Source of the DNA: Dehalococcoidia bacterium
Lineage (GTDB): Bacteria > Chloroflexota > Dehalococcoidia > SM23-28-2 > RBG-16-64-32
NCBI GenBank assembly: GCA_040882565.1
Contig: JBBEAZ010000024.1
Location: forward strand, 105,662 to 169,661
Length of the DNA: 64,000 nt
Reading direction: 5' to 3'
Every line of letters starts with the position of its first letter. Positions within the stretch are counted from its first letter, which is position 1. A model generated the notes under the pieces. It did no database searches. It had not been told where the DNA came from and saw only the letters and a program-made list of their open reading frames with translations. A program made the translations under genes and the position numbers. This document shows, piece after piece, positions 2,330 through 49,908 of this stretch.

Positions 2330-2860
2330 GCACCAAGCGCATTCAATCGACGTTTCACAGCGTTCAATCGACGCTTTCGGCGGTCGTGTGTATCTGCGCT
2401 TTCGTTGTCCGGCGGGAACGGTTCGTCCGGGTCACAGTCATCGGGTTTCGTCGCCTGTCTCGACTCTGGGACTGTAGCCACCCTCATACCATACTTGCAA
2501 TTGTGGATATTCGTGACACTTTGAGAGCAATCACTTCGGACAGAGAATTGCGGAAGATGAGAGCGAAGAACTGAGCACGTATTTCGTTGAGACCGACCAA
2601 TGGCAGCGCATGTTCAAAGGTGAGGTCGGGTGCCGTTCTTGTACCGAGATGCGCTCGATATGGTTCAAGGAGCCGCCGAGTAGTGCGCGTGTCGGCTGTT
2701 ACAACGGTCAGAGCTGGTGATAATCGCTGACATTTTGACATCTGTGGCACGTAACCGCCCGACAGCCCATGGGAGCTGGCGGGAATGGCGAAGGATGAGA
2801 TTGACAGCACTCCTACAGCAGGTGCATTGTAGGGCCCACTAGGACCTAATGGGAGGACAC

Positions 2861-4027
2861 ATGTCATCTCTTACGCTGTTGGCGGGAACGAGCAATCAGG
2901 CCCAAAGTGAACGCTGTCCTTGGTGTGACAACCCGATAACCCACCGGCAGTTCGAGGAAATAAGAGCGAGAATAGCCTCCGAAGAGCGGAAGCGAGCGGC
3001 GGACGCGGCTGCCCAGTTAGAGGCGGAGCTCAACAGAGAGCGCGCGGAGGCCAAGAAGGTCGTGGAGTCAGAACGGGCCCGTCTAGCGAAGGAAGCCGAC
3101 GCCAGGGTGACCGCTGAGGTTAAGTCGGCCCGCGAAGAAGCGGCCGAGGCAAGCCGTCTCCAACTCGCCGAGATGGAGAAGGCGGCCATAGCCGCCGAGG
3201 CGCGCGTCGACGCTCTTGAAGCGGGCCAAGAAGATATGATTGCGGCCCGGCTCAAGGAGCAACGGACCGCCCTAGAGAAGGACAAGATTGACGCTTTGAA
3301 CGCCGAAAGGGCGCAGCGCTCAAAGGACGAGCTGAAGTTCAAAGAGAAGGTCGACCTCCTCCAACGTCAGCTCGAGAAGAAGACAGCGGAAGACCTAGGT
3401 GAGGGCGCAGAGGTCGACCTCTTCGAAACGCTGAGGGAGGCGTTCCCCGAGGACCTCATCACGCGAGTCGGGAAAGGTAAGGAAGGCGCCGACATTTTGC
3501 ACAGGGTCCGGGACTCTGGCGGCCACCAGTGCGGTTCAATCGTCTACGATTCCAAGAATCGCACGGCTTGGCGCAACGAATACGTAACAAAGCTTCGGAA
3601 GGATCAACTTGTAGCGAAAGCGGAGCACGCGATTCTCACATCTCTCGCGTTCCCAGCCGGCGCGAGGCAGCTTCACTTGCAGGATAGCGTGGTTGTATGC
3701 AATCCCGCGCGAGCTCGGGCAATCGTTGAATTGCTTCGCCGACATATCGTACAGACCCACACCATGCGGCTCAGCGCAGAGGCACGAGCCGAGAAGACTG
3801 CGCATCTGTACGATTTCGTAACATCAGATCAATGCGCTCAACTCCTAGAACAAATCGAGGCGCGTGCCGCAGACATTCTGACCCTTGACGTCACTGACAA
3901 GAAAGCGCACGAGTCGACCTGGAAGAAGCGTGGCGAAATGGTGCGCGCGATTGAGCGTGCTCACTTGGACCTTTCCACGGAGATTGATCGCATCATTGGT
4001 GGGCAATCGATTCGGCTCGTGAAATAG
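2861..4027 (+). CDS. zinc-ribbon / long coiled-coil protein with a C-terminal DUF2130-like region (possible PD-(D/E)xK nuclease fold)
   Basis: ATG 2861 follows GGGAGG. The N-terminus has a CPWC zinc ribbon. About 200 aa of E/K/A-rich coiled coil follow. The C-terminus has the conserved block GKGKEGADILHRV ... GSIVYDSKN ... W ... KLRKDQ, read by eye as a D / D-x-K catalytic-like arrangement. The DUF2130 assignment is from memory of the family architecture and was not searched. Confidence 0.75.
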   Translation: MSSLTLLAGTSNQAQSERCPWCDNPITHRQFEEIRARIASEERKRAADAAAQLEAELNRERAEAKKVVESERARLAKEADARVTAEVKSAREEAAEASRLQLAEMEKAAIAAEARVDALEAGQEDMIAARLKEQRTALEKDKIDALNAERAQRSKDELKFKEKVDLLQRQLEKKTAEDLGEGAEVDLFETLREAFPEDLITRVGKGKEGADILHRVRDSGGHQCGSIVYDSKNRTAWRNEYVTKLRKDQLVAKAEHAILTSLAFPAGARQLHLQDSVVVCNPARARAIVELLRRHIVQTHTMRLSAEARAEKTAHLYDFVTSDQCAQLLEQIEARAADILTLDVTDKKAHESTWKKRGEMVRAIERAHLDLSTEIDRIIGGQSIRLVK

Positions 4028-4028
4028 C

Positions 4029-4982
4029 ATGGGGGATCCGAAGGTGGTTCGCCTTGCTCCCAATCTAGACGCGTTGCAGGAACGTCGACTGGGTCGCACT
4101 GTACTTCGTACCTATCGGGCTACTCTGGACATCGACGACCTCATTCCCAACGAACGCCAACCTAGGCTAGGACCGAAGGAAGACGACGAACTACAGCGCC
4201 AAATTGAGGCCAATGAAGGAGTCTTCGAGCCCTTGCTGGTCGAACCTCACCCTGATGTGCCAGACAAATTCAGAATAATTGACGGCGAGCGACGTTGGAC
4301 GAACTCACTCGCGCTTGTGCACCAGGGGAAAGAACAGTATCGACAGCTGCCCGTCGAGATAACAGATAGAACACTCTCTGACGATGAACGATTGAGGGCG
4401 TGGATTTACATTCATCGCCAGCGCAAAGAATGGGACGCCAAAGAGAAAGAGATGGTGGCCTACAGACTCGTACAGTTAATGGGACGAGCCAGCGCCGCCA
4501 GTATATTGGGCATCACCGTTAGAGAACTGGATAAGCTGGTCGACATATTCGAGCTGTCTGAGCGGTTTGACAATCTGCGGGACCCGAGCGCAGCTATCAC
4601 CTGGGCACGTGAACTGAATGGCGTAAGCAAGAAGCTTCTAACCCCATCGATCGTTGATGCCGTCGTAGGCAAAGTCGGCGACAAGCGCATAACGAACTCT
4701 AAGGATATTCGCAAACTTCGTGTGATCCTTCGCGATCCAGTAGCCAAGGCGAACTTCCTGTCGGATGAGGGTGATATTGATTCCGCGTTGCTGCGAATTG
4801 CCCCGGACGAATCCAGTAAGGACGAACGTGACATCCTCACTCAGCTCGACTTCGCGATGGAGTCCATCCGACGTGCTCCGTGGACTACGCTTGAACAACA
4901 CCGAGGAGACGACCGCTTGATTCGACGCATCGATGAAGCCGAGGAGCTCCTTAGGGCGCTACGCGAGAAGTTGTCGAGGTAG
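4029..4982 (+). CDS. ParB/Srx (ParB N-terminal CTPase / nuclease-like) domain protein with a central HTH
   Basis: The start lies 1 nt after the upstream stop (TAG 4025-4027, ATG 4029), suggesting translational coupling. EPLLVEP ... FRIIDGERRWTNS matches the ParB box II GERRxRA arginine-finger motif. AASILGITVRELDKLV is HTH-like. The C-terminal 130 aa are helical and of unknown function. The gene has about 52 % GC. Confidence 0.8.
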   Translation: MGDPKVVRLAPNLDALQERRLGRTVLRTYRATLDIDDLIPNERQPRLGPKEDDELQRQIEANEGVFEPLLVEPHPDVPDKFRIIDGERRWTNSLALVHQGKEQYRQLPVEITDRTLSDDERLRAWIYIHRQRKEWDAKEKEMVAYRLVQLMGRASAASILGITVRELDKLVDIFELSERFDNLRDPSAAITWARELNGVSKKLLTPSIVDAVVGKVGDKRITNSKDIRKLRVILRDPVAKANFLSDEGDIDSALLRIAPDESSKDERDILTQLDFAMESIRRAPWTTLEQHRGDDRLIRRIDEAEELLRALREKLSR

Positions 4983-5054
4983 GGTCCCGCCGTTAGGAGC
5001 CGCCGGGCAATATGCGGCGCGTCAACTTACGCGAGCGTCAGCGTTTGAGAAAGA

Positions 5055-5225
5055 GACCGTCGAGGACGCCACGCAGGAGCTGTCGCATTGACAAGCCTTG
5101 GCGTCGAAGTTCCGGAGGGAGCGCGACTTGGCGGCCGCTGGTCCGCGAATCTTGCGGCCTGGTTGTCGCGGACTTAGAGTAGGGCGCGATGACGGGGAGA
5201 CCGGGGATTCCCCCTCGCGCAGAGG
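5055..5225 (+). repeat. copy A of an imperfect ~145-170 bp direct repeat (partner at 18186-18330)
   Basis: It aligns at about 85 % identity with 18186-18330. Shared blocks are GTCGCAT, AAGTTCCGGAGGGA, GCGACTT and GGTCCGCGAATCTTGCGGC..GTCGCGGACTTAG..GATGACGG. It has nested hairpins (GTCCGCGA/TCGCGGAC and CCGC-gaatctt-GCGG). Confidence 0.7.
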
Positions 5226-5390
5226 CTTCGGGCGCGAAGTCGAAAGGGGTATGTGGCACGGCCACGCCAGTGTCTCAGGACCCTCTCGGCGGCGAGGTGG
5301 TGGCAATGCGATGGGCTGGCTGTATCGCCCTCGGCCCAAGGGGGGTTACCTCGACCGGCTCATCCCCCGTTACCACTTGGACTGTCTGTC

Positions 5391-5756
5391 TTATGGAACG
5401 TCTTTCTTGGTTTGATTCAGCTTCTCCAATACCGCAGCGAGGGCGTCGATTGTTGCGTCGACGTCGAGAGCTCTGCGGCGGGCATTGTCGTGTATCCAAG
5501 CTAGAGCCTCGGACATTGGTTCACCCTCATCAACGCTGAATTCGTCAATCTGTACGCCCTGTTCGTTGGCGATGGACAAGGTATAGGTGGCACTAAAGGT
5601 AGATTTTAGATCACCGGTGATCCTGACCGAGGCAGGGCCAAAGTTGGCGTCGAAGATGCTATAGTCCGGTTTCGCAATTAGCGCGCGCCATTCTAGCTTG
5701 TCGCTGGCTTCAGCTAGATTCTTAACGATCGATTCGTATCTTGGTGGTATGGGCAT
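5391..5756 (-). CDS. hypothetical protein (121 aa)
   Basis: It is a clean ORF on the low-GC islet with no recognisable motifs (MPIPPRYESIVKNLAEASDKLEW...). Confidence 0.45.
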   Translation of the reverse strand: MPIPPRYESIVKNLAEASDKLEWRALIAKPDYSIFDANFGPASVRITGDLKSTFSATYTLSIANEQGVQIDEFSVDEGEPMSEALAWIHDNARRRALDVDATIDALAAVLEKLNQTKKDVP

Positions 5757-5766
5757 CCTATTTCCT

Positions 5767-6270
5767 TTACGCTTGGCGAGCGTCGAACTGCATTCTAGTC
5801 GATAGGGCGGTGAGAAAAGAAGAAAGTTGCGTTAGGGAGACATGCACGCTCGTCAGTTGTGAATCCTTGGGGTGCGACTCACCTAGTGTGGCCTTGAGTA
5901 GCAGTTTCTCCATATCCTCTACCTGCTCGATGTGCGAGTTGAATGTTTGGGTATCGTCTGCCGGGATGCCAGCTCCTGCGAGCTTTGCGAGGGCTTCCCT
6001 TAGATCGCTCATGCGACCGAGAGCGGCGCCATACTGCCGGTTTCGGACGTGCTCTTGGAGGTTAGTAATGATTCGAACAGCGTTAGTCAGGTCAGTCAGT
6101 TGAAGCTGGCGTGCGAGTTGTCGGGTTGTCGCGTAGACGGTTTCGGCTCTCTTTGCGACAGTATCGGCAGCACTGCGAATCTGCCAGACGGCAACTATCA
6201 GCGCGACGGCTGTCGCCCCTATCCCAGCCAATGCGATGATGTCACGCCAGCCGTCATTCAGAAATCCCAT
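5767..6270 (-). CDS. hypothetical membrane-anchored coiled-coil protein (about 167 aa)
   Basis: The start was moved to Met 6270 (MGFLNDGWRDIIALAGIGATAVALIVAVW, one TM helix). The upstream part of the listed ORF (to 6438) only translates the tRNA-like remnant (..GLEPPTPG..). Confidence 0.5.
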   Translation of the reverse strand: MGFLNDGWRDIIALAGIGATAVALIVAVWQIRSAADTVAKRAETVYATTRQLARQLQLTDLTNAVRIITNLQEHVRNRQYGAALGRMSDLREALAKLAGAGIPADDTQTFNSHIEQVEDMEKLLLKATLGESHPKDSQLTSVHVSLTQLSSFLTALSTRMQFDARQA

Positions 6271-6356
6271 TTCACCGTATGATAATGGTTTGTAGGCACC
6301 CGTGATCTTGGGCGCACAGCGCTCACAACCTGAGATACGGACGCACACCGCCAGCA

Positions 6357-6410
6357 GGATTAGGTTTCCTAAACCGGGTGTCGGCGGTTCGAGTCCGTCC
6401 CGGGGCACCA
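6357..6410 (+). pseudogene. tRNA-Arg(CCU)-like 3' fragment: anticodon arm to CCA, with no matching 5' half. Likely an att-site remnant
   Basis: TAGGT-TTCCTAA-ACCGG / GTGTC / GGCGG-TTCGAGT-CCGTC / CCGGGGC-A-CCA. It has a canonical T-arm and U33/A37 flanking the CCT anticodon. The required 5' acceptor strand GCCCCGG is absent upstream. Confidence 0.5.
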
Positions 6411-6618
6411 CAATTTCGTGCCTGTAGCGAAACCCCATCGACCTACGGTCGGCGCCGGTCCGGGCGAGCCCGCGACCCTCGGAGTGGAAGGAATATCTGC
6501 CCGCTATAAGTCAAGTTACGTTGATTGTGAGGTTGGTTTGGTCATACCCATTCGCGTTCATGACGTAGATCTCAGAGAGTTCGGGTCGGACTAGCGCGGC
6601 GCTTACAATACCCCTGAC

Positions 6619-38433: not shown

Positions 38434-39291
38434 GTGCCGACGGTCGAAGGCACGTTCGTCCACCTGCCCGGCCGCGGGCTGCGACTGCACTACCGCGACT
38501 GGGGCGGCGACGGCCCGCCGCTGATCCTCCTGCACGGCCTCTCGTCGGGCAGCCGCATCTGGGACTGGACCGCGCCGCTCCTCGCGCAGCGCTTCCGCGT
38601 GATCGCGCTCGACCAGCGCAGCCACGGCCTCAGCGACGCCCCGGACGACGGCTACGGCTTCGACGACGTCACGGCGGACCTCGATGCCTTCATCGAAGCG
38701 CTCGGCCTCGAGCGGCCTGCCCTCGCCGGCCACTCGTGGGGCGCCAGCGTGGCGCTCACCTACGCGGTTGCGCACCCGGCGCGCGCAGTCGTGCTCATCG
38801 ACGGCGGCGTCATCGAGCTTTCGAGCCGGGGCACATGGGAAGACGCCGAGGCGCGCATGCGCCCGCCGGACATCGACGGCACGCCGGTCGAGACCTTCCT
38901 CGGCTTCATGCGCCGCTGGCCGAACCTCCAGGACATGTGGAAGGAGGACCTTCCCGACATGGTGCTCTCCAACTTCGAGGTCCGCGACGACAAGGTCTAC
39001 CGGCGGCTGGCGATCCCCAACCACATGAAGATCGCGCGGGCCATCTTCGACCTCAAGCCTTCCGAGTTGCTGCCGGAGATCGCCTGCCCGCTGATGATCA
39101 TCTCCTGCCACCAGGAGCCGAAGACCGAACTCGAGCAGTCGTGGCTCGACGTGCGGCTCGAAGGCATCGAGGCTGCGCGCCGGTTGGTGGCCCGCGCGCG
39201 CGTCCTGATCATGGAGGACACGATCCACGACGTGCCGATCCAGCGCCCCGCCGAGCTGGCCGCCGCGATCAGCGACTTCCTGACGGAGTAG
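38434..39291 (+). CDS. alpha/beta hydrolase
   Basis: The oxyanion region is HGLSSGSRIW. The nucleophile elbow is GHSWG. Confidence 0.85.
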   Translation: MPTVEGTFVHLPGRGLRLHYRDWGGDGPPLILLHGLSSGSRIWDWTAPLLAQRFRVIALDQRSHGLSDAPDDGYGFDDVTADLDAFIEALGLERPALAGHSWGASVALTYAVAHPARAVVLIDGGVIELSSRGTWEDAEARMRPPDIDGTPVETFLGFMRRWPNLQDMWKEDLPDMVLSNFEVRDDKVYRRLAIPNHMKIARAIFDLKPSELLPEIACPLMIISCHQEPKTELEQSWLDVRLEGIEAARRLVARARVLIMEDTIHDVPIQRPAELAAAISDFLTE

Positions 39292-39546
39292 GGCCTTCGC
39301 CGGCGACCATGCCCCCGCGTATGGCCGGTCAGGCGTTGCCCGCGTGCTGCAACTCGGGGGTTAAGTGTCTCCACCAAAAGGTCTTTGGCAGCCAAGGAGC
39401 GTTGGTCTCGCCGCTTGCCGCCCTGATCGCGTCATTGTCAGCGTGCTCGCGGAGTGTGGATCGAAATCCTTGCTCCAGCGTATGGAACCTCCGCTTCACG
39501 GCGGAACGCACATTCGGGCCACCGGGTGCCCGCTGGCTTCCTGTCG

Positions 39547-39771
39547 CTAGACAGGCAGTTGCTTCCTGGGCTGACAACGCGGCGGCATGGCAATGATAGC
39601 AATTGCTTCTCGTCCAGCTACTACTTCTGATAACCGCCCTTGAACCGTGGGCAGATCCGGTGAGGCTGCCTTGATGAAGTCGACGTCCCTGCAGAACTCC
39701 GCTCGGTAGTTGTCGAGCTTAGCAACCGACTCTTCAATTGTGCATTCAAGAGGACCCCAGACCCAACTCAT
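39547..39771 (-). CDS. cassette ORF 1, hypothetical small protein (74 aa)
   Basis: Low-GC ORF starting at Met 39771, directly downstream of repeat R1. Confidence 0.4.
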   Translation of the reverse strand: MSWVWGPLECTIEESVAKLDNYRAEFCRDVDFIKAASPDLPTVQGRLSEVVAGREAIAIIAMPPRCQPRKQLPV

Positions 39772-39786
39772 GTCAACATTGACTCC

Positions 39787-39865
39787 ACCACAAACCCGCC
39801 ACCGCCTTGCTCGATGGCGAACGCGCCATCCGTGGTCTGCCACGCCCCGCAAACTTGCGTCTTGT
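39787..39865 (+). repeat. cassette-array repeat R1 (slightly 5'-truncated copy)
   Basis: ACAAACCCGCCACCGCCTTGCTCGATGGCGAACGCGCCATCCGTGGTCTGCCACGCCCCGCAAACTTGCGTCTTG. Contains the hairpins GATGGCG/CGCCATC and CGCAA-ac-TTGCG. Confidence 0.8.
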
Positions 39866-39957
39866 CGCAGGTCTCGCGCCCCGTCGTGCGCTCCGTCTGC
39901 AACCGCGGCCGACGACGCGGTTCATGGCCGCGATTGTGGCCACGTTGGCTCGCACGT

Positions 39958-40350
39958 CTAGGCGATGGGCGTGCCGTGCGTGGCACTGCGATTGTAGGCA
40001 GCATCTCGCCTGCGCTTGGTCGAGAGGATCCCTCCCACGAGCCCATGTAAGAACGCGCCGACAGGAAAGACAATCCACGCAGCAACGAAGATGGGTCCCC
40101 CGAAAAAGAAAAGCGGCTCGGTGGCAAGAACGACCATGGTGGCCGATATTCCAAGCAGCGTCCCCACAGGCAAATTTCTGGTCGACGCGAGAAGAAGACC
40201 CACCAGCCAACCGCCAATCCAAGCTCCAACGAAAGGAACTTGGAGAAACCACGGCATTACAGCAATCACGAATGCTATCAACAATCCGATGATGCAGAAA
40301 AGTATGAACGTGCCCAGTCCGTATTGATGAGCCGCGCGAGCCATAATCAC
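39958..40350 (-). CDS. cassette ORF 2, four-TM membrane protein (130 aa)
   Basis: Hydrophobic segments FILFCIIGLLIAFVIAV, VGAWIGGWLVGLLLA, etc. Confidence 0.5.
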   Translation of the reverse strand: MIMARAAHQYGLGTFILFCIIGLLIAFVIAVMPWFLQVPFVGAWIGGWLVGLLLASTRNLPVGTLLGISATMVVLATEPLFFFGGPIFVAAWIVFPVGAFLHGLVGGILSTKRRRDAAYNRSATHGTPIA

Positions 40351-40380
40351 AGTTTACCTTGGGGCGGGTTTCGCCCCCCT

Positions 40381-40470
40381 ACTCGAACGCCCCATCCACG
40401 ACAAACCCGCCGCCTTGCTCGATGGCGAGCGTGCCATCCGTAGTCTGCCACGCCCCGCAAACTTGCGTCT
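40381..40470 (+). repeat. cassette-array repeat R2
   Basis: ACTCGAACGCCCCATCCACGACAAACCCGCCGCCTTGCTCGATGGCGAGCGTGCCATCCGTAGTCTGCCACGCCCCGCAAACTTGCGTCTCG. Confidence 0.8.
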
Positions 40471-40486
40471 CGTGCGCGCCACGCTG

Positions 40487-40732
40487 TCACACGACCGCCC
40501 ATACATTCGCTGCGACCGCCGCAGTTCCGACAAGCAAGAACGATCCCGGCATGATCCAGCGGGCATAGCGACGCCACAGGTCACGTCGTCGCTTCTGCTC
40601 GTCGGGAGGTAGCTGTGGGGGAATAATTGCAGGATTCTTCAGCGTGGAATCGGCCACGATGTCAAAGATGGGCTTCACAGCAGTTAGCAACCCGGCTGCG
40701 ATGAAGCATGCCCCCAATATCAGCATCACCAT
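40487..40732 (-). CDS. cassette ORF 3, two-TM small membrane protein (81 aa)
   Basis: MVMLILGACFIAAGLLTAV .. SFLLVGTAAVAANVWAVV. Confidence 0.45.
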   Translation of the reverse strand: MVMLILGACFIAAGLLTAVKPIFDIVADSTLKNPAIIPPQLPPDEQKRRRDLWRRYARWIMPGSFLLVGTAAVAANVWAVV

Positions 40733-40736
40733 TGCT

Positions 40737-40830
40737 TCCCCCTACTCACGGCCCACCCACGACAGACCCGCCACCGCCTTGCTCGATGGCGACCGTGCCA
40801 TCCGTAGTCTGCCACGCCGCGCAAAGCTTG
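40737..40830 (+). repeat. cassette-array repeat R3
   Basis: CTCACGGCCCACCCACGACAGACCCGCCACCGCCTTGCTCGATGGCGACCGTGCCATCCGTAGTCTGCCACGCCGCGCAAAGCTTGCG. Confidence 0.8.
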
Positions 40831-40839
40831 CGATCGGAT

Positions 40840-41328
40840 CTAGAACGGGCACTCAGGAACCTCGGTCAGTAGCCACGAACCGTCGTCCTGGCGTGCCACA
40901 CCCCACTCATAGGCAACCGTCTTCACATTGGCACCAGCCCTCGCGACGAACTGTCCGCGAACGACCGCCTCGCCATCGCGCCCCGGAGTGATCTCCGCGG
41001 GGTCGTCTAATTCGATGCCTGCACCCACGGGAGCACACCCAACGAAGGAGGAAAGCTGATCGTCCTCAATTCGGTCGTCAATTAGTGGCCGAAGCAAGCG
41101 CTCCGACGGAATGAAAGCCCTGTTCATCACATCGCTAACGAGAGAGTTGATGTCCTCTTCGTCCCTCTGAGAAAGCAAAGTGACACCCGGAGTTGCCGTT
41201 GGGTCAATCCGCACGGGCGACGTTTCCGTGAAGGTGTCGGAGAACTGAACGTCCGTTCCAGCGGACAGCAAATACAGCACGATCAACGCGACTACTATAG
41301 CTACAACCAGAAATACGATCTTTCTCAT
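40840..41328 (-). CDS. cassette ORF 4, secreted/membrane-anchored protein (about 162 aa)
   Basis: Start ATG 41328 (MRKIVFLVVAIVVALIVLYLL signal-anchor). Confidence 0.5.
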   Translation of the reverse strand: MRKIVFLVVAIVVALIVLYLLSAGTDVQFSDTFTETSPVRIDPTATPGVTLLSQRDEEDINSLVSDVMNRAFIPSERLLRPLIDDRIEDDQLSSFVGCAPVGAGIELDDPAEITPGRDGEAVVRGQFVARAGANVKTVAYEWGVARQDDGSWLLTEVPECPF

Positions 41329-41354
41329 GTGCAAATCAGAAAGTCCGACGAATC

Positions 41355-41455
41355 ACCCCTACTCGAACGGCCCATCCGCGACAAGCCCGCCGCCGGCTTG
41401 CTCGATGGCGAACGCCGCCATCCGTAGTCTGCCACGCCCCGCAAACTTGCGTCTC
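41355..41455 (+). repeat. cassette-array repeat R4
   Basis: CCCCTACTCGAACGGCCCATCCGCGACAAGCCCGCCGCCGGCTTGCTCGATGGCGAACGCCGCCATCCGTAGTCTGCCACGCCCCGCAAACTTGCGTCTCGG. Confidence 0.8.
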
Positions 41456-41785
41456 GGTGCGGGTCGCGGTTCCCGAACCCAGCGGCGGCCACCATCGTTG
41501 TCCTAGCAACCGTGCGCGCCTTCCATCCACAGCCTCGCCACTGGTCCGTCTTGATGTCAGCTCTCGTGTCGTTCGCCTTGGCGATGGCGCTGATGAGTTT
41601 CACGTACTTAGTGGTGCTCGCAGCAAACGAGTTTGCCAGCACGCCTACCTCGTGTGATCGGAGATGGGCGGGGCTTCCAGACCCGAGCACGAGCATCGCA
41701 TCCGAATATGTGAGGGAATTTAGCGAACTTGATAAGGCGGGCTGCAGTCCTCGCTCCTATTTCTACTGATTCAAACTGAACCATT

Positions 41786-42154
41786 TCACGATTCGCGGCC
41801 TTCGTTCTCCTTGGTCCATATCGCGTTCATCACCGCCATGCCGTGATCTGTGATGGCGAACTCGACAAACTCATGATCTGGTGACTCTGAGCCAGCCCAA
41901 TTATCCGGATTCGCGAGGACATCATTGATGTCTTCGGCGGGGATCGGTCGGGCGTCGGATGGGTCGTGTTTCGCAAAGACCAGCCTGACAAGTCCTTTGG
42001 CAAGGAGGCTCTGTAGCGTTGGTTCAGTTGATCCGCTGACCTCGACTCCAGTGGGAGAGAGCGTGATCGTGAAACTGGGGTTGAACTCCTGAAGGCCAAA
42101 CGAGTCGTCGTACGAAATTTCTAACAGGGCCCGTTCCTGATCCGTCAGATCCAT
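41786..42154 (-). CDS. cassette ORF 5, soluble hypothetical protein (about 122 aa)
   Basis: Start at Met 42154 (MDLTDQERALLEISYDD..). The upstream part of the listed ORF merely translates repeat R5. Confidence 0.45.
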   Translation of the reverse strand: MDLTDQERALLEISYDDSFGLQEFNPSFTITLSPTGVEVSGSTEPTLQSLLAKGLVRLVFAKHDPSDARPIPAEDINDVLANPDNWAGSESPDHEFVEFAITDHGMAVMNAIWTKENEGRES

Positions 42155-42198
42155 CACGCAGCGATTATAGACTTCACGCCGCGCGCGCCGACGGCTCG

Positions 42199-42290
42199 CC
42201 ACTCGACGGCCCACCCACGACAAACCCGCCACCGTCTTGCTCGATGGCGGACGTGCCATCCGTAGTCTGCCACGCCCCGCAAACTTCGCC
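42199..42290 (+). repeat. cassette-array repeat R5
   Basis: CCACTCGACGGCCCACCCACGACAAACCCGCCACCGTCTTGCTCGATGGCGGACGTGCCATCCGTAGTCTGCCACGCCCCGCAAACTTCGCC. Confidence 0.8.
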
Positions 42291-42312
42291 TCGTTGAGCG
42301 CGTTGGGTCGTC

Positions 42313-42760
42313 TCAAGCCAACGCGAAACGAGGGACGGCGTGGCCAACTTGGCGCAATCTAAGCAAGAGGTGGTCGCGGTTCGGGGGTTGCGCGTGCAAT
42401 GCGAATCGCAGCCTTCCGGGTCGGGAACCGCGATAACGCACTCCTTCAAGAGCGAGAATCGATAAGACCTCCATGAATTGCCGGAAGCGATCCCGGTCGG
42501 GAAGAAGCCTGTCCGCGTCCGAAACGAGTGCCACGTATTGGGAAGCTGGCAGCCAACTGAGATCCCTCATCCAATCTACGAGCGAATTCCAATTGTTGCT
42601 GACGGTCGGGAAATCGAATGCGAAGCTCCAAGCAGCCAGAAGGGCATCCTCGTCATCTCCGCTATCGCCAGGTACGGTTCGAACAACCAAGTCTGCTGCT
42701 GGCTGCGCCTCAAGAAAGCGATCCAGCTGACCGCGACTGCCCACCAAGACACTGAGCCAT
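42313..42760 (-). CDS. barstar-like (barnase-inhibitor family) putative immunity protein. Start codon uncertain
   Basis: LVVRTVPGDSGDDEDALLAAWSFAFDFPTVSNNWNSLVDWMRDLSWL follows the barstar pattern (.. F.FP.Y.G.N.DAL.D.L.DL ..). The N-terminal part of the listed 208-aa ORF overlaps a partial repeat copy. Confidence 0.5.
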
Positions 42761-42875
42761 GGCGCTTCAGGTGCGAGAAGCGTCGCCCAGCTGATCTTCG
42801 GGTCTTCTTGAACCGTCAATTGACTAGCAGTCCTGAGTGAATGCGTCACCCAATATACACGCGTGGGGCCATCCC

Positions 42876-42905
42876 TAGCCGGCCCGCCCATCCACGAAGG
42901 AAAGA
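42876..42905 (+). repeat. partial cassette-array repeat copy R6'
   Basis: GGCCCGCCCATCCACGAAGG resembles the CGGCCCATCCACGACAA block of R2-R5. Confidence 0.4.
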
Positions 42906-42949
42906 GCGGGCCCGATGGCCCGCTCTTAATGCCAAACACAGGGTCTGGT

Positions 42950-44479
42950 CTAGAAATCTTCGTCCAGTTCCGCTTCGTCCACGTCAGCCTCGTTCTCCAC
43001 GAACAAGGCGAACACGCGATCGAATGAGTCGCGGCTGAGAACCGGCTTAGCGCCGTCGAAACTCGCGCTCTCGATCAGGATCTCCACGAGGTCGCGGGCG
43101 TAGCTCGCCCTGGGCTGCAGGCCGGGCTCGTCGTAAATCTTGCGCACCGCGTGCTCGATCGCGTCATCTTCCACCGGAACGTGCTTCGTGCGGCACTCGC
43201 GGCGCATGATCTCCCCGAAGTTGGCCTCGTCCGGATTGGGCATTCGCACCTTGTAGAGAATACGCCGGAGCAGCGAGTCGTCGGCGACGTCGCGGACCCG
43301 CGCGTTCGTGCCGAACAACAGCTGCAAGCGGAACGGCACCGTCAGTTTCTCGCCGGTGGCGAGGCTGAGCGAGTCCCAGCCGCGCTCCAGCGGGATCAGC
43401 CAGCGTGTGAGCAGGTCGGTCGTCGTTACGCGCTGCCGGCCGAAGTCGTCGACGATCAACGCGCCGTTCTGCGCCTTGATGTGCGCCGGCGCCTGGTAGA
43501 ACTTTGACTGCGGGTCGTAGCCCAGGTCGAGGGCGTCGCGGTCCATCTCCGCGCCGAGTATGATAGCCGGCCGCTTCACCTTGACCCAGCGCCTGTCCAG
43601 AAGCGAGTCGTCCTTGAACGAGCTTGAGTCCTCGTTCTGGTCCGGCGTCTCAAGCGGCTGGTGGATCGACGCGTCGAACACGCGGATCACCTGCCCGTAG
43701 GCGTAGATCGCGTAGGGCATCACGGAGTGGCCTTCCAGTGCCTTCGCAAAGCGTTCGAGGACGACGGTCTTCCCGTTGCCCGATGGCCCGTAAAGCAGCG
43801 TCGTCTTCCCCGAATACAGCGCCCGCGCTGTCGCGTCCGACACCTCACTTGTCAGGACCAGGTCCTTGAGTGCTTCTGTGATCTCGTTGCGGCTGACGGC
43901 CGGCTTCTCTTCGAGCAGCTTCGTCATCACCCGCGTGTATTGTTCGGCCGTCACCGGTGCCGGACCCGCGTACCGCGTGCGCTCCAGCGCTTCCGCTACC
44001 CGCGTCTGTCCGCGCTCCGAAAGGCGGTAGCGGTAGTTGCCGGTGTAGAGGTCAGACTGGCTCAGGATGTCCACCAGCCGCTCTTCCTGAAGCGCCTGCA
44101 GAATCTGTCCCACGATCTCCGTGTGCAGGCCCAGGCGCTTCGAGAGCTGCGCCAATGAAGGCGTGCCCGAGTAGTGCATGATCTTCATCGTCAGGTCCGT
44201 CAGGAACGCCTTCGAAAGACCAACCTCAGTGAACGTCCGTGGCGCGTTGGGGATCAGACCTTCATCCGCCGGGTCGTCTTTGTCCGCGACCGTGGCCATC
44301 GTCCGCGAGATGAACTGCGACATGGAATCGCTGTGTTGCTCCTCCGGCGCTGCCGACCCCTCGCGGGCGAAGAGCGACGGCACGTAGCCGCCATTCATCA
44401 CGCCGCCGGGCGGTCCGCCTGGGGCGGACTCGCCTGCGACGTCCGGTTCATCGTCTCGGAACACTGGTTCGGTCTCCAT
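42950..44479 (-). CDS. AAA+ ATPase with an N-terminal winged-helix domain and an acidic C-terminal tail; function unknown
   Basis: 509 aa. The wHTH region is PSLAQLSKRLGLHTEIVGQILQALQEERLVDI. Walker A is LYGPSGNGKT. Walker B is ALIVDDFGRQ. The sensor-1 region is LLFGTNAR. The C-terminus is ENEADVDEAELDEDF. Confidence 0.8.
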   Translation of the reverse strand: METEPVFRDDEPDVAGESAPGGPPGGVMNGGYVPSLFAREGSAAPEEQHSDSMSQFISRTMATVADKDDPADEGLIPNAPRTFTEVGLSKAFLTDLTMKIMHYSGTPSLAQLSKRLGLHTEIVGQILQALQEERLVDILSQSDLYTGNYRYRLSERGQTRVAEALERTRYAGPAPVTAEQYTRVMTKLLEEKPAVSRNEITEALKDLVLTSEVSDATARALYSGKTTLLYGPSGNGKTVVLERFAKALEGHSVMPYAIYAYGQVIRVFDASIHQPLETPDQNEDSSSFKDDSLLDRRWVKVKRPAIILGAEMDRDALDLGYDPQSKFYQAPAHIKAQNGALIVDDFGRQRVTTTDLLTRWLIPLERGWDSLSLATGEKLTVPFRLQLLFGTNARVRDVADDSLLRRILYKVRMPNPDEANFGEIMRRECRTKHVPVEDDAIEHAVRKIYDEPGLQPRASYARDLVEILIESASFDGAKPVLSRDSFDRVFALFVENEADVDEAELDEDF

Positions 44480-45487: not shown

Positions 45488-46138
45488 TTGAGTGGATCCC
45501 TCGATCACGTAACAACGATCCGCGGCCGCTTTGTCGAATTGCGGCCGATCAGCCGCGAGGACTATCCCACCTTATTCCGCTGGCGCTCGAGCTTCAGCAC
45601 GATCCACGCCCTTAACTTCCGGCGCAGTGTTTCCACGTACGAGGAGTTTGTCCGCGAGTTGGAACAGATGCTCCCGAACGTGATCCTTCTCCTGATCCGC
45701 GATCGCAAGACCGCCGCGCCAATTGGTTACACCCTCGGTTACAACATTCAGCCTTGGGACCGATACATGGGCGGCTCGATCTTCATCGAGCCGGGCCGCC
45801 GAATGCGCGTCTACGGCGGCGAAGCGCTTGTTCACTCCATCGATTTCTTTTTCTCCCTCTTCCCCATCAACAAGATCGTGGTTGAGCCATACGAATTCGC
45901 GACGACGCTCCGCGCGATGCTGGAAAGAATGGGCTTCGAGGAGTGCGGCGTCTACACCGACCATTACTGGCACGACGGCAAAAGTTGGGCGCTCCACGTC
46001 ATGGCGCTGCACCGGGAGCGGTGGGGGATAGAGCGAGAGAGGTACTTGAGTCTGATCGATACGGAAAACTTCCTCTCCAGTCATGACGAAAACGGCGCCC
46101 GTGGAGATGATCAGATCGGAAGTGAGGTCGCTATATGA
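45488..46138 (+). CDS. GNAT family acetyltransferase (RimJ/RimL-like)
   Basis: 216 aa. FVELRPISREDYPTLFRW ... acetyltransferase core. Confidence 0.7.
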   Translation: MSGSLDHVTTIRGRFVELRPISREDYPTLFRWRSSFSTIHALNFRRSVSTYEEFVRELEQMLPNVILLLIRDRKTAAPIGYTLGYNIQPWDRYMGGSIFIEPGRRMRVYGGEALVHSIDFFFSLFPINKIVVEPYEFATTLRAMLERMGFEECGVYTDHYWHDGKSWALHVMALHRERWGIERERYLSLIDTENFLSSHDENGARGDDQIGSEVAI

Positions 46139-46779
46139 TGAAGCAAGGGCTGGTCTTGGTCGGCGGAACCGCAGCGGTTGCCCTCCTGATCTTCCTAATC
46201 CTGACGGTGGGTGGAGTCGACTTGCGTGAAGAGGGAACCGCGCAGGAGTCGGGGGGATTCACCGGGGACTTACTAATTTGGAGTGGACGCCAGGAACTCG
46301 CAGTGTGCGTTGAGGTCGCTGGATCCGCGAAGAATGAACAACAGGTCGTCGCAAGCGAGGCCGTCGAATCCGTATCGCCAGCCTTGCTGATTGTGAGCCA
46401 GGACGAGGCATTCACGGCCTCCGAGCGACTTCAGACGGCGGCCAGTTCGGTCGTCGTCGAAGCAGAGTGCCCTGGAGATGCCCAACTCGATTGTCCAGCG
46501 TATCCGTACGACCCGCCAATATTGTGCCCGGACGGCTACGAGATAGTGAAGGAGCCAAGTAAGTACCGGGTCTTCGTCTACGTGGTTTCCGATGCAGATC
46601 TAGAGCAGATCCTTGGCGGCGCGACTCAGCGTCGGGGTGGCGGAGAACACTTGTGCAGCGGAGACAGTTGCTCGGAAGTCACGTCGGCGGTGTATGTGAG
46701 CGTTAACGAATTGAACGACACCCAAGTACTGGCTGGCATACTCCGTGAGGGACTTGGGTTTGGCGGTCACAGGGAGTGA
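46135..46779 (+). CDS. hypothetical secreted/membrane-anchored Cys-containing protein
   Basis: ATGA overlap with the GNAT stop. Signal-anchor LVLVGGTAAVALLIFLILTV. Confidence 0.55.
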   Translation: MMKQGLVLVGGTAAVALLIFLILTVGGVDLREEGTAQESGGFTGDLLIWSGRQELAVCVEVAGSAKNEQQVVASEAVESVSPALLIVSQDEAFTASERLQTAASSVVVEAECPGDAQLDCPAYPYDPPILCPDGYEIVKEPSKYRVFVYVVSDADLEQILGGATQRRGGGEHLCSGDSCSEVTSAVYVSVNELNDTQVLAGILREGLGFGGHRE

Positions 46780-47639
46780 CGCCACGGGAAACCTCCCACC
46801 AATGGCGCATCGTGCGCGTGGCTTTAAGCGCGGCCGTCGGTACCACGCTTGCTTTGGCAGCCCGGCTCGCGACCTCTGAACCCGGGAAAGCCAGTCACCC
46901 CTACTGGTTTCCAATCCAAGATCCTGGGCACATAGAGTCCATCAACTTTTCCGACATACCGGAAGCGGTCTGCGTCGATATCCAGACACAGCCGGCCATT
47001 GACTATCAGACCGCGTGGTACAGGATTGGGGATGCCCTCTACTACGCTGTACCTGACGGCGAGGATAGCTGGGACGGGCTTAACAACGACAAAATCAACT
47101 TCACATTTGCCCACCATAAAGAATATGAGATGCTCGGGCAGGGCTGCTTCGCCCCCCCGCCGGCCGACCCCTTGGTTTGGGAGATCCGAATCGCCGTTAA
47201 GGATGACGTGACGAGCAACTGCAACGGAAACTCTCGGGGATGCGCGTTTCGGAACGGCCCCATGTACGGGGACCCGTCGACTTCTGGGCACTCCTATGGC
47301 GAATACCAGAACAGTCAAATCTACATCGCGACAGGCGAGCTTCTAAGTGACTCCTACCTCTTCATAATAAATCATGAGGTCGGTCACGCGCTTGGTCTGG
47401 CCGACGGCGGGCCCGACGCGCCCGATGAACAGAACGCGAATGGTACTCAAATTCCCTTGCCATCCCAAACACAGAATCCATTGTCCTGCTCACCAATTAG
47501 TATCATGCATGTCTACGGTTGCGATGAGACGGACTGGCCGTCCGCAGTTGACAGGGCGGCCCTCGAGTTTCACATTCCCAACGGGCAACCGGCCGGCGGT
47601 GGGGGCAGTGGAGCCACCGCCAACAAGGGGTTCTTCTAG
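46776..47639 (+). CDS. secreted zinc metalloprotease (HExxH zincin)
   Basis: HEVGHALGLADGG is an HExxHxxGxxD-type motif. N-terminal signal-like region. Confidence 0.75.
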   Translation: MTPRETSHQWRIVRVALSAAVGTTLALAARLATSEPGKASHPYWFPIQDPGHIESINFSDIPEAVCVDIQTQPAIDYQTAWYRIGDALYYAVPDGEDSWDGLNNDKINFTFAHHKEYEMLGQGCFAPPPADPLVWEIRIAVKDDVTSNCNGNSRGCAFRNGPMYGDPSTSGHSYGEYQNSQIYIATGELLSDSYLFIINHEVGHALGLADGGPDAPDEQNANGTQIPLPSQTQNPLSCSPISIMHVYGCDETDWPSAVDRAALEFHIPNGQPAGGGGSGATANKGFF

Positions 47640-47643
47640 ATAC

Positions 47644-49908
47644 ATGAGAGTATTGATCGGCGCCCTCGCCGTAGTTGCCGCTCTTGCCGCTCTTACGCTA
47701 ATCACGTATCGCGAAGCCTTCGCCGCAGGCACATATGGGCCTACTCTAACCGTCGAACACTGCAACGGCCTCGCTGCCAACTTCCCCGCGAGCGGGACCT
47801 CAACTGATCCCGACCTTGCCGGCAACCCATCGTGCACCACCGGTGCCACTCCGCTTGCGTTGAACACCGCAACAAACTTGACGTTCAAGCAAGCGGTGCC
47901 CATTGGCCACATGAATCCTGGCACGGCTCTGTTCGTGACCGGGCCCGGTGACGATTACGTGGCGCCGGACGCATCAATTGCGAACGGAACCAAGGCTGGT
48001 GGCGTGACGGCCACCATGACCATCAGCGTGGCAAATGGCGCGTGCTCGACAGCGATCAACGTAGATTACATCCTCTACGAATCAACGACCAGCAACTCTG
48101 TGCTCATCGATCCGTTGGACCCAGGCACCGCCGACCACCTCTCGAACCTCGCCACGGATTCCGGCTTGGATGGATTCGCCGACTACAATTCGCCATTCCG
48201 CAACTCCAACCCGAGCTTTTACCCTCCCATCTTTGACCCCGATTTGGACGCCTTACTGGGGATCAACGGCCCAGTTGCGCCCTTGCTACCAATCGCACGT
48301 TATACGGGCATGTCGCGTGTCATTCCTACCGGGTCCGGGGAGTGGTCGATGCTTTCTGTTTTCGTCTTCAACAGCAGCGCTCTCGCCCCGTTCGCCGCCT
48401 ATGAACACAATATTCCTCATTCATTCTCCCGTCTTGGCCGTTCGCCGGCCGACGGGCGTGTCTACTTCGCGGTTTTTGACGATCCGCTCGAAGCAGCTTA
48501 TGGGCAGTCGAGGCTCCTCGAGACGTGCAGTCCGCTTACCACCACAGCGATGCTTCTCGGCACCCTACCGAATGCCGAGGTGCGCGCGCGAACGCCAACG
48601 ACTTCAGGGACGCGTGCGTATAGCGCGTGGAGCTACAGCGCCCGCAACGCCGACAGCGACACGCTGGACAATTGGCTCGACAGTTGCCCGCTAGTCGCCA
48701 ACGCCGGTACCGACGCAGACAACGATGGCATCGACGGCGCGTGCGATCCCACACCTTCCGTCAACACCGGCTTCGGCGACCACGACGGCGACGGCTTCAA
48801 CAACCGCGAAGACAATTGCCCGCTAGAGGCCAACTGGCCGCAGTCCTCGGAGCGCGAGGGCGAGATGTACTACATCACCACCGCCCCGGACGGCGGCCCC
48901 CGCGGCGACGGCATCGGCAACCACTGCGACCCGCACCAGTTCAACGGTTACTCGGAGGGCGATTTCATCGAAAGCTACGTCATGGTGCCCAAGTGCTTCG
49001 GCGGCACAGACGGGGACGGAGATCGCTACTGCTCTACGCAGGACCTCAACGACAGCAGCGCCTCGACGCCCGGCTACACGCTGAACAGGGGCCCCGACAC
49101 GGACGGCCTGCCCATCGGCGATGGTCATGGCTCAAACCTGGAGAAGTACGTCGGCACCGATCCGCTCAAGGCTTGCAACAAGACCACGGCAACTGATGAT
49201 GAATCAGCGGGCGCGGACGCCTGGCCGGTGGATCTCAACGACTCAGGGCACGTCAACATTACAGACATACTCGGGATGAAGCCGTTTATCGGTTCGGCGG
49301 TGCCGCCGAACCAGCGCTATGACATTGTCCCGAGCAAGACCATCAACATTCAGGACGTGCTCGCGATAAAGCCTTCAATCGGCTTGACGTGCGGGATTAC
49401 AACCAGGATCGATGCTGAAATTGCCTACGAGATTGCGAACGCAGCAACGTTGATCGGCTCCCCCGAGACGTGCACGGAGATGAACGTTGGCAACAGCATC
49501 CAAATTGATATCACAGCGAGCGCGATTCCGGCCTATACCGGTGGCCAAAACGGCCTCACCGGCTTCGAGTTCACGTTCAAGTACATCAGCAGCAAAATCA
49601 AAGTCACCGCGCTCGACGTCGACCTGCTTCTCAAGGCGAACCTGAACTCCAGTCTGCTCAGCATCGGCGACGCTCCGCCGAATACTGACGGCACGTTCTT
49701 CGTCTCAGTGGGCGATATTGGCACTGGGCAGCCGGAACAGGGCGCCGGCGTATTGGCCCGCATCACCGTCGAGGCGCTGGCCTCAGGCACTACAGCGGTG
49801 GAACTCACCAACATGGTCCTGACCGGAAGGACGGTGGGCGGCGGCGACTTCGAATACCCGGCGCGGGCCGTCAACGCGAACCTGGCCATCGGCACCACCT
49901 GCCCCTAG
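47644..49908 (+). CDS. large secreted protein with thrombospondin type-3-like Ca-binding repeats and C-terminal dockerin-like / beta-sandwich regions
   Basis: The start was set at ATG 47644 (MRVLIGALAVVAALAAL signal). The longer listed ORF from 47374 overlaps the previous gene in a different frame. The TSP3-like repeats are DADNDGIDGACD, DHDGDGFNNREDNC and GDGIGNHCD. Dockerin-like pairs are DLNDSGHVNITDILGMKPFIG and TINIQDVLAIKPSIG. Confidence 0.8.
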   Translation: MRVLIGALAVVAALAALTLITYREAFAAGTYGPTLTVEHCNGLAANFPASGTSTDPDLAGNPSCTTGATPLALNTATNLTFKQAVPIGHMNPGTALFVTGPGDDYVAPDASIANGTKAGGVTATMTISVANGACSTAINVDYILYESTTSNSVLIDPLDPGTADHLSNLATDSGLDGFADYNSPFRNSNPSFYPPIFDPDLDALLGINGPVAPLLPIARYTGMSRVIPTGSGEWSMLSVFVFNSSALAPFAAYEHNIPHSFSRLGRSPADGRVYFAVFDDPLEAAYGQSRLLETCSPLTTTAMLLGTLPNAEVRARTPTTSGTRAYSAWSYSARNADSDTLDNWLDSCPLVANAGTDADNDGIDGACDPTPSVNTGFGDHDGDGFNNREDNCPLEANWPQSSEREGEMYYITTAPDGGPRGDGIGNHCDPHQFNGYSEGDFIESYVMVPKCFGGTDGDGDRYCSTQDLNDSSASTPGYTLNRGPDTDGLPIGDGHGSNLEKYVGTDPLKACNKTTATDDESAGADAWPVDLNDSGHVNITDILGMKPFIGSAVPPNQRYDIVPSKTINIQDVLAIKPSIGLTCGITTRIDAEIAYEIANAATLIGSPETCTEMNVGNSIQIDITASAIPAYTGGQNGLTGFEFTFKYISSKIKVTALDVDLLLKANLNSSLLSIGDAPPNTDGTFFVSVGDIGTGQPEQGAGVLARITVEALASGTTAVELTNMVLTGRTVGGGDFEYPARAVNANLAIGTTCP

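Follow-up and report, generated by a model that had tools for sequence, protein, structure and literature searches.

The stretch of DNA analysed here (hereafter the window) is 64,000 nt long and comes from an uncultured Dehalococcoidia bacterium (Chloroflexota; Dehalococcoidia; SM23-28-2; RBG-16-64-32; assembly GCA_040882565.1, contig JBBEAZ010000024.1, positions 105,662–169,661, forward strand). It contains an intact gene of the barstar family of ribonuclease (RNase) inhibitors that has no barnase-type RNase gene beside it or elsewhere in the window, and that is the first unit of a foreign-looking island of six open reading frames (ORFs) punctuated by direct repeats. Barstars of this kind inhibit ribonucleases of the barnase/RNase Sa type (PF00545) by pushing an acidic helix and the loop next to it into their active site. 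Judged from its sequence the gene is likely still functional, and on balance we favour a role in orphan immunity, i.e. protection against a barnase-type RNase that would be encoded elsewhere than beside the barstar gene.

The barstar gene and its absent RNase partner

The peptide AAWSFAFDFPTVSNNWNSLVDWMRDLSWL, in which the initial annotation recognised a barstar pattern, is found in the minus-strand ORF 42313..42939. The 208 AA translation of this ORF matches the Pfam Barstar family (PF01337, gathering cut-off 23.4 bits) with E=3.6e-9 and 36.9 bits, and a 168 AA version of it does so with E=2.3e-9 and 37.5 bits, so the pattern is a true family match. The gene and its landmarks are the following:

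42313..42819, minus strand: long-form barstar-family gene, 168 AA, probable TTG start at 42819, TGA stop at 42313–42315
42460..42681, minus strand: stretch matched by Pfam Barstar, residues 47–120 of the 168 AA protein
42559..42597, minus strand: helix α2 segment NNWNSLVDWMRDL, placed by profile-to-barstar alignment and the family conservation table

Logan gene calls start this ORF at ATG 42891, giving a protein of 192 AA. In alignments to 414 relatives (below), residues 4–8 of the relatives pair with about residue 30–38 of the 192 AA query, and since the alignments begin there the start codon is probably TTG 42819 and the protein 168 AA long. The limits first proposed for the region, 42313–42760, are thus correct at the 3' end and too short at the 5' end, where they cut off a conserved N-terminal 45 residues that belong to the barstar-family protein. 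We note that none of four alternative-start translations of the gene is present in the protein collection, which holds only the 192 AA Logan call.

A word-indexed search of 5.8 billion proteins gave a single match, the identical 192 AA Logan gene call (P0001). When 1.84 billion cluster representatives were scanned exhaustively with HMMER, 414 relatives came up at E<=1e-3, of which the top two are 39–40% identical to the window protein, and a profile built from 40 members of the family retrieves 784 proteins, all 784 of which carry PF01337. These "long barstars" are about 165 AA in length (relatives are typically 155–190 AA). The family profile matches the Bacillus amyloliquefaciens barstar chains in the PDB over barstar residues 5–43 (E=9e-4); a PDB search with the single barstar-family protein sequence gave no match, so that these chains are reached by the family profile only. 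No protein of the INPHARED phages matches the window barstar. The window protein adds a divergent new member to a family already known. Its AlphaFold2 (AF2) model is confident along the whole chain and has the barstar α/β fold of three parallel strands and four helices. The reading frame is full length, with no stop or frameshift over its 168 codons, all five family-invariant residues are retained, and the protein is identical on Logan contigs of three sequencing runs.

The segment NNWNSLVDWMRDL is the equivalent of barstar helix N33–W44, the plug of the RNase active site. Barstar residues Asp35, Asp39 and Glu76, on helix α2 and the adjacent loop, block the active site of barnase (PMC8837141), and a DxxxD motif has been defined for the Imm-Barstar family (PMC3482391). 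By the profile alignment the Asp39 equivalent is kept as D in the window protein; among the aligned relatives, 72% have D at the first DxxxD position. The closest relative, P0122 (40% identity), is encoded on a 944-nt contig, L016, that contains no RNase gene. From α2 to β2 the window protein and P0122 are identical at 16 of 24 positions (67%, versus 40% overall), and these two RNase-less barstars have in common NWNS(L/F)(V/I)D(W/C)M(R/T)DLSWLPAS(Q/H)YV; the RNase-linked relative P0123 carries the family-typical NWDAF at the same helix position. We infer that the window protein still folds as a barstar with an altered but conserved binding helix; it would be an inhibitor of shifted specificity and not a wreck.

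Genomic contexts were retrieved for seven distinct barstar relatives, and in six of them a PF00545 RNase gene lies directly upstream of the barstar gene (P0294 on L012, P0348 on L013, P0337 on L014, P0282 on L015, P0123 on L017–19 and P0330 on L021–23). The two genes are 0–5 nt apart or overlap by 4 nt, and the RNase domains of the partners were confirmed with E=1e-10 to 2e-14. This agrees with the initial annotation, which expected barstar homologues to follow an RNase gene, and with Zhang et al. (2012), who found Imm-Barstar specifically associated with barnase-like nuclease toxins, as a gene pair in toxin-then-immunity order (PMC3482391). The partner of P0282 (L015 2229–3995) is a 588 AA protein with its PF00545 domain at the extreme C-terminus and about 500 N-terminal AA that have no Pfam match, a polymorphic-toxin layout which suggests that it is a delivered toxin.

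No such gene is present in the window. Its six-frame translation was searched with a hidden Markov model (HMM) made from the actual partner RNases of six long-barstar relatives, which found nothing (best E=0.15), and with a second HMM of barnase, binase and RNase Sa, which also found nothing; a regular expression for the catalytic-motif region had no match. Pfam scans took in part of the window ORFs (the neighbours and the otherwise unassigned ORFs), among which there is no ribonuclease, no component of type VI or type VII secretion or of contact-dependent inhibition systems and no SUKH/Imm family member; the genes recognised are ordinary metabolism and signalling genes. The absence of an adjacent barnase-type toxin, remarked on from the start, therefore extends across all 64 kb, and since a PF00545 RNase is neither adjacent nor elsewhere in the window, the barstar gene is a true orphan there.

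The island and its repeats

The initial annotation placed an AAA+ ATPase upstream of the barstar gene and repeat-delimited cassettes downstream of it, and both descriptions are accurate. In order along the window the features of the region are:

38434..39291, plus strand: α/β hydrolase, flanking core gene outside the island, which in relatives converges directly on the ATPase gene
39547..39771, minus strand: cassette 6, ORF of 74 AA, no family, called in Logan assemblies only
39767..39874, minus strand: repeat copy r1
39958..40344, minus strand: cassette 5, 128 AA, four hydrophobic segments, no family, WD904_04365
40378..40477, minus strand: repeat copy r2
40487..40732, minus strand: cassette 4, 81 AA, two hydrophobic segments, no family, WD904_04370
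40739..40845, minus strand: repeat copy r3, which begins at the cassette 3 stop codon
40840..41328, minus strand: cassette 3, 162 AA, N-terminal transmembrane (TM) or signal segment, isoelectric point (pI) 4.2, no family, WD904_04375
41358..41465, minus strand: repeat copy r4
41786..42157, minus strand: cassette 2, acidic soluble protein of 123 AA, pI 4.2, no family, WD904_04380
42200..42301, minus strand: repeat copy r5, between the barstar gene and cassette 2
42873..42897, minus strand: 25-nt fragment of the repeat 3' end at the island/terminator junction, 20/25 matching and the first 12 identical
42902..42927, no strand assigned: perfect 11-bp hairpin after the ATPase stop, a conserved terminator of the convergent ATPase/hydrolase junction, on the core-genome side of the island
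42950..44479, minus strand: winged helix-turn-helix plus AAA+ ATPase, flanking core gene outside the island, conserved across Dehalococcoidia

The locus tags WD904_04365, 04370, 04375 and 04380 run from cassette 5 to cassette 2 and are followed by 04385 for the ATPase, so the barstar gene appears to be skipped in this series. About 255 nt between cassette 6 and the hydrolase stop have no assigned feature.

The flanking genes show how the island is placed. The ATPase is the same protein as WD904_04385 (Dehalococcoidia bacterium), and many orthologues of 56–78% identity are found in Dehalococcoidia metagenome-assembled genomes (MAGs). In five relatives (L006/L007, L008/L009, L010/L011, L020) genes for ATP synthase, MurA, MreB, small ORF(s), Rex and the ATPase follow one another, and then come the convergent α/β hydrolase and an LLM oxidoreductase. 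The stops of the ATPase and hydrolase genes are only 50–100 nt apart in these relatives and have the same terminator hairpin between them, as listed for L006, L008 and L020; the ATPase of L020 is 78% identical to that of the window. In the window 3.6 kb (39292–42896) are inserted between these two genes. The six ORFs of the insert have a GC content of 55–58% and a third-position GC content (GC3) of 0.56–0.65, versus a GC3 of 0.85–0.95 in the flanking core genes. The island is compositionally foreign and was probably acquired horizontally. The ATPase was considered as a functional partner or toxin and rejected, being a core gene that has its own terminator, the same neighbours in many Dehalococcoidia and no barstar there; because it is conserved next to the hydrolase gene in relatives, from which only the inserted island parts it here, the ATPase does not belong functionally with the barstar gene. 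The roughly 130 nt from the ATPase stop to the barstar start are taken up by the 11-bp hairpin and the repeat fragment. Of 2000 shuffled sequences, 10 align as well to the repeat as this fragment does. Its resemblance to the native spacer of L020 is weaker, and the case for a native-spacer origin is weak (p ~0.08). Other origins and classifications of the island were also considered and rejected: no island DNA matches PLSDB and PHROGs gives nothing, so a phage or plasmid origin was set aside; the window lacks any tRNA or tmRNA gene from which an att site could derive; and PADLOC reports no defence system for the island genes.

The direct repeat is about 95 nt long and occurs five times (the core pattern gives 5 matches versus 0 expected), all in the orientation of the ORFs and inside 2.6 kb. 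Ungapped identity of the copies to the reference copy is 62–94%, where the 62% copy has a 1-nt insertion that lowers its score, and a 29-nt core is present within one mismatch in all five. Each copy ends in a sequence resembling a ribosome binding site (RBS), GAGTAGGGG, 5–45 nt ahead of the next start codon. The array is a set of dissimilar small ORFs of one orientation bounded by a related repeat, with six ORFs, five repeats and one fragment. None of cassettes 2–6 matches Pfam, NCBIfam, PADLOC or PHROGs (0/5), three of these five non-barstar ORFs encode membrane proteins, and an AF2 model of cassette 2 made without an alignment has a mean confidence score (pLDDT) of 50. Three NCBI MAG assemblies have identical cassettes 2–5 in an unchanged order, and the Logan short-read contigs that carry the barstar gene all stop 45 nt into the repeat. 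No recombinase or transposase is found among the window ORFs scanned with Pfam.

When the repeat was traced by nhmmer through the window and 23 fetched loci, only the five array copies were found, and a scan for the exact core through GTDB representative genomes, JGI metagenomes and IMG/VR turned up nothing but two chance matches (L001 and L005), within unrelated sequence. A known RNA family was sought and rejected, there being no Rfam match at E<=1 except a spurious long non-coding RNA; the sense-strand RNA of the repeat folds weakly better than shuffled sequences (z -0.9 to -1.9). An attC/integron identity was likewise rejected, since the single-stranded DNA folds no better than shuffles (z -1.7 to +0.3 for the sense and -2.1 to +1.1 for the antisense strand), no arm pairs span the repeat and it lacks R''/R' boxes; no conserved GTTRRRY box is present in it.

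The closest barstar relative is also bracketed by direct repeats. P0122 lies between two 54-nt copies (L016 128–181 and 726–779) that are 78% identical and 598 nt apart, and each ends in an RBS just ahead of the next ATG. There is no detectable homology between this repeat and that of the window. A motif matching at 13 of 14 nt, CCACGCGT(G)GTATA, which resembles a -10 element, is found upstream of both the window and the L016 barstar ORFs (p ~0.007 by shuffling).

Cassette 2 and its surroundings have further features. A perfect TATAAT at 42162–42167 (minus strand) is followed after 4 nt (5 by coordinates) by the GTG start codon and after 7 nt by the ATG of cassette 2, and as a -10 element, if used, it would give a near-leaderless cassette 2 transcript. 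The spacer from the cassette 2 stop to repeat r4 (41467–41785) is unusually long at 320 nt; it contains a possible plus-strand ORF of 85 AA with a TM segment (41512–41769, no Pfam match) and a minus-strand ORF of 58 AA, neither of which is in the protein collection.

Two other parts of the window have an atypical content. Between Rex and MreB there is a second lineage-specific insertion (45488–49908, plus strand, GC3 0.65–0.75), at a site where relatives have only an ORF of 66–79 AA, plus a 167 AA ORF in one of them. It encodes a GNAT-like acetyltransferase, a 214 AA TM-anchored acidic protein, a 287 AA protein with a zinc-protease-like HEVGHALG motif and an 844 AA secreted-looking protein with weak thrombospondin-3 and dockerin matches. 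The low-GC stretch at 2849–6438 (54–59%) has a gene for a DUF2130 protein, whose LmuB-like coiled-coil matches are weak, then one for a ParB_N-domain protein and two family-less ORFs, and may be another mobile or defence-related islet.

Function of the gene and nature of the array

In the mechanism that we favour, the intact long-form barstar (Imm-Barstar, PF01337) that the window gene encodes would act as an intracellular inhibitor; the gene would have become separated from its usual RNase partner in this Dehalococcoidia population and is carried as the first unit of the island, inserted at the convergent terminator between two core genes. The target would be either a toxin domain that other bacteria deliver or an endogenous enzyme encoded at an unlinked site. 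Expression of the gene, binding of an RNase by its product, the identity of that RNase and the route by which the island was assembled are points that we infer. Several observations weigh against orphan immunity. The putative TTG start is preceded by a weak AGGA only, no sigma-70-type promoter was detected in the barstar region, and the NCBI annotation of the MAG by the Prokaryotic Genome Annotation Pipeline (PGAP) appears to have no protein for this ORF. The Asp35 equivalent is Asn, with the motif N-S-L-V-D, so the DxxxD signature reads NxxxD; the Y29 equivalent has been lost through a one-residue deletion in the FPxYFG loop, and the RNase-contacting loop reads FPT-VSNNWNSLVDW versus a family consensus of FPxYFGxNWDAFxEC. 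The window, finally, yields no known delivery system for Dehalococcoidia. The start codon, the apparent lack of annotation and the lack of a promoter-like site, together with the 13 of 32 well-conserved positions at which the protein departs from its family and which are concentrated in the RNase-binding loop, also favour the idea that the inhibitor was captured without its toxin and is a decaying or neutral passenger, unselected, en route to loss and without present function. We regard this as rather unlikely in view of the intact frame, the retained invariant residues, the confident model and the identity of the protein in three sequencing runs. Moreover, the pattern NWNS...D...DLSWLPAS is common to the independent relative P0122, and the higher local than overall identity of the two proteins argues for purifying selection on a distinct specificity. 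A different idea is self-immunity, in which a barnase-type RNase, secreted or a toxin domain, would be encoded elsewhere in the genome and the barstar gene would be an orphan only locally. The window covers 64 kb of a genome that has at least 373 kb on this contig alone, and the intact ORF and the binding helix conserved with P0122 would fit such a role. This is quite improbable, however, as the coupling of the two genes is tight (gap <=5 nt) in 6 of 7 relatives, the foreign island that brought in the barstar gene has no RNase gene, and Zhang et al. describe barnase and barstar as a toxin-immunity gene pair (PMC3482391). Orphan immunity against an RNase encoded elsewhere than beside the gene thus remains the reading that we prefer.

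For the array as a whole, a cassette-capture structure and a foreign operon with an intergenic repeat are roughly balanced. The latter would be an ordinary operon in which a small dispersed repeat like the repetitive extragenic palindromic (REP) sequences, mycobacterial interspersed repetitive units (MIRU) or miniature inverted-repeat transposable elements (MITE), or else a duplicated leader/RBS element, had colonised or homogenised the intergenic regions, and we take it as a serious possibility, if one slightly short of even. It accords with a repeat that is not a hairpin recombination site and that ends in an RBS-like sequence before each ORF, with the lack of a recombinase or transposase among the scanned ORFs and of a terminal repeat after the last cassette, and with the constant order of cassettes 2–5 in three MAGs. 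If it is true, then the repeat says nothing about immunity cassettes. It accords less well with five copies in one orientation that recur nowhere else in the 64 kb or in related loci, with a repeat fragment exactly at the island junction, with family-less ORFs between the repeats, none of which recurs in the island and all of which have a common atypical composition, with the direct repeats that bracket the closest barstar relative, and with short-read assemblies that break inside the repeat. The proposal in the initial annotation of an orphan-immunity cassette within a collection of such cassettes is upheld for an orphan barstar in a repeat-delimited foreign island; for the whole array as immunity cassettes, five of whose ORFs are family-less, it remains conjectural. 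Rather a long shot is an undescribed cassette-capture system of Chloroflexota, in which a non-hairpin repeat of ~95 nt would lead each gene and supply its RBS, and a recombinase encoded elsewhere would stack the units at a terminator-associated site, collecting orphan immunity genes. Such a system, if true, would resemble integrons or rAID-1 in function while using a different recombination site, and L016, with its different direct repeat, would belong to another array of this type.

Orphan immunity genes, a well-known class, are taken as footprints of interbacterial warfare, and documented orphan-immunity arrays are mainly from gut Bacteroidales, Proteobacteria and Firmicutes. The window gene, an intact orphan on a foreign island, suggests that selection by barnase-type RNase toxins acts in the community of this Dehalococcoidia, and it offers a concrete pair, the window barstar versus the RNases of its relatives. 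The repeat architecture is the more interesting part; if it recurs elsewhere with other ORFs, it would point to a non-integron mode of gene-cassette stacking. A practical lesson is that the barstar gene is apparently missing from the NCBI annotation of the MAG and that the AAA+ ATPase gene beside it belongs to the core genome and is unrelated.

Comparison with known barstars and gene arrays

The barstar of B. amyloliquefaciens (Imm-Barstar) is 89 AA long and the window protein 168 AA. The latter adds a conserved N-terminal extension of ~45 residues (strand-helix-strand) and a helix-strand tail after the barstar core, making a larger α/β domain overall; it also differs in reading NxxxD for DxxxD, in lacking the Y29 equivalent and in having no neighbouring RNase gene. 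The simple barnase-barstar pairs of the relatives (L012–L015, L017, L021) are of the same long-barstar subfamily and align end to end with the window protein at 29–40% identity, but the place upstream of the barstar gene that their RNase gene takes is filled in the window by a terminator and the fragment of the repeat.

Clusters of attC sites lacking integrase (CALINs) are arrays of integron type, in which the R''/R' boxes of attC have the form RYYYAAC/GTTRRRY. Like integron arrays and CALINs, the island has promoter-less-looking, mostly ORFan-like small ORFs in one orientation with a related repeat of ~100 nt between them and a repeat fragment at the proximal junction of the array, and as in CALINs there is no integrase nearby. 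The attC site, however, is an imperfect palindrome with R''/R' boxes, and the window repeat has neither property; it also precedes each ORF and does not follow it, and the last ORF has no repeat. Neither an IntI-type recombinase nor an attI site lies beside the array, which is flanked by the ATPase and hydrolase genes, and no such recombinase is among the window ORFs scanned.

Polyimmunity loci are, like the island, tandem same-strand sets of closely spaced small genes with variable foreign content and no toxin genes between them, and extended loci of this type are reported only in Proteobacteria, Bacteroidetes, Firmicutes and Actinobacteria (PMC3482391). The rAID-1 arrays of Bacteroidales contain orphan immunity genes, skewed GC and integron-like repetitive intergenic sequences (Ross et al., 10.1101/471110), and the island is likewise a same-orientation array with an orphan immunity-family gene, skewed GC and repetitive intergenic sequences. 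A XerD-family recombinase heads the rAID-1 arrays, whereas the head of the window array adjoins the ATPase terminator, and they reach 16 kb in Bacteroidales, versus 3.6 kb in this member of the Chloroflexota. In both rAID-1 and polyimmunity loci immunity homologues fill the array, whereas the barstar gene is the only recognisable one of the six genes here. Because the defining recombinase is absent and only 1 of 6 genes is a recognisable immunity gene, the island is filed under neither heading; the nearest described architecture to it is nevertheless rAID-1, and polyimmunity loci are also close.
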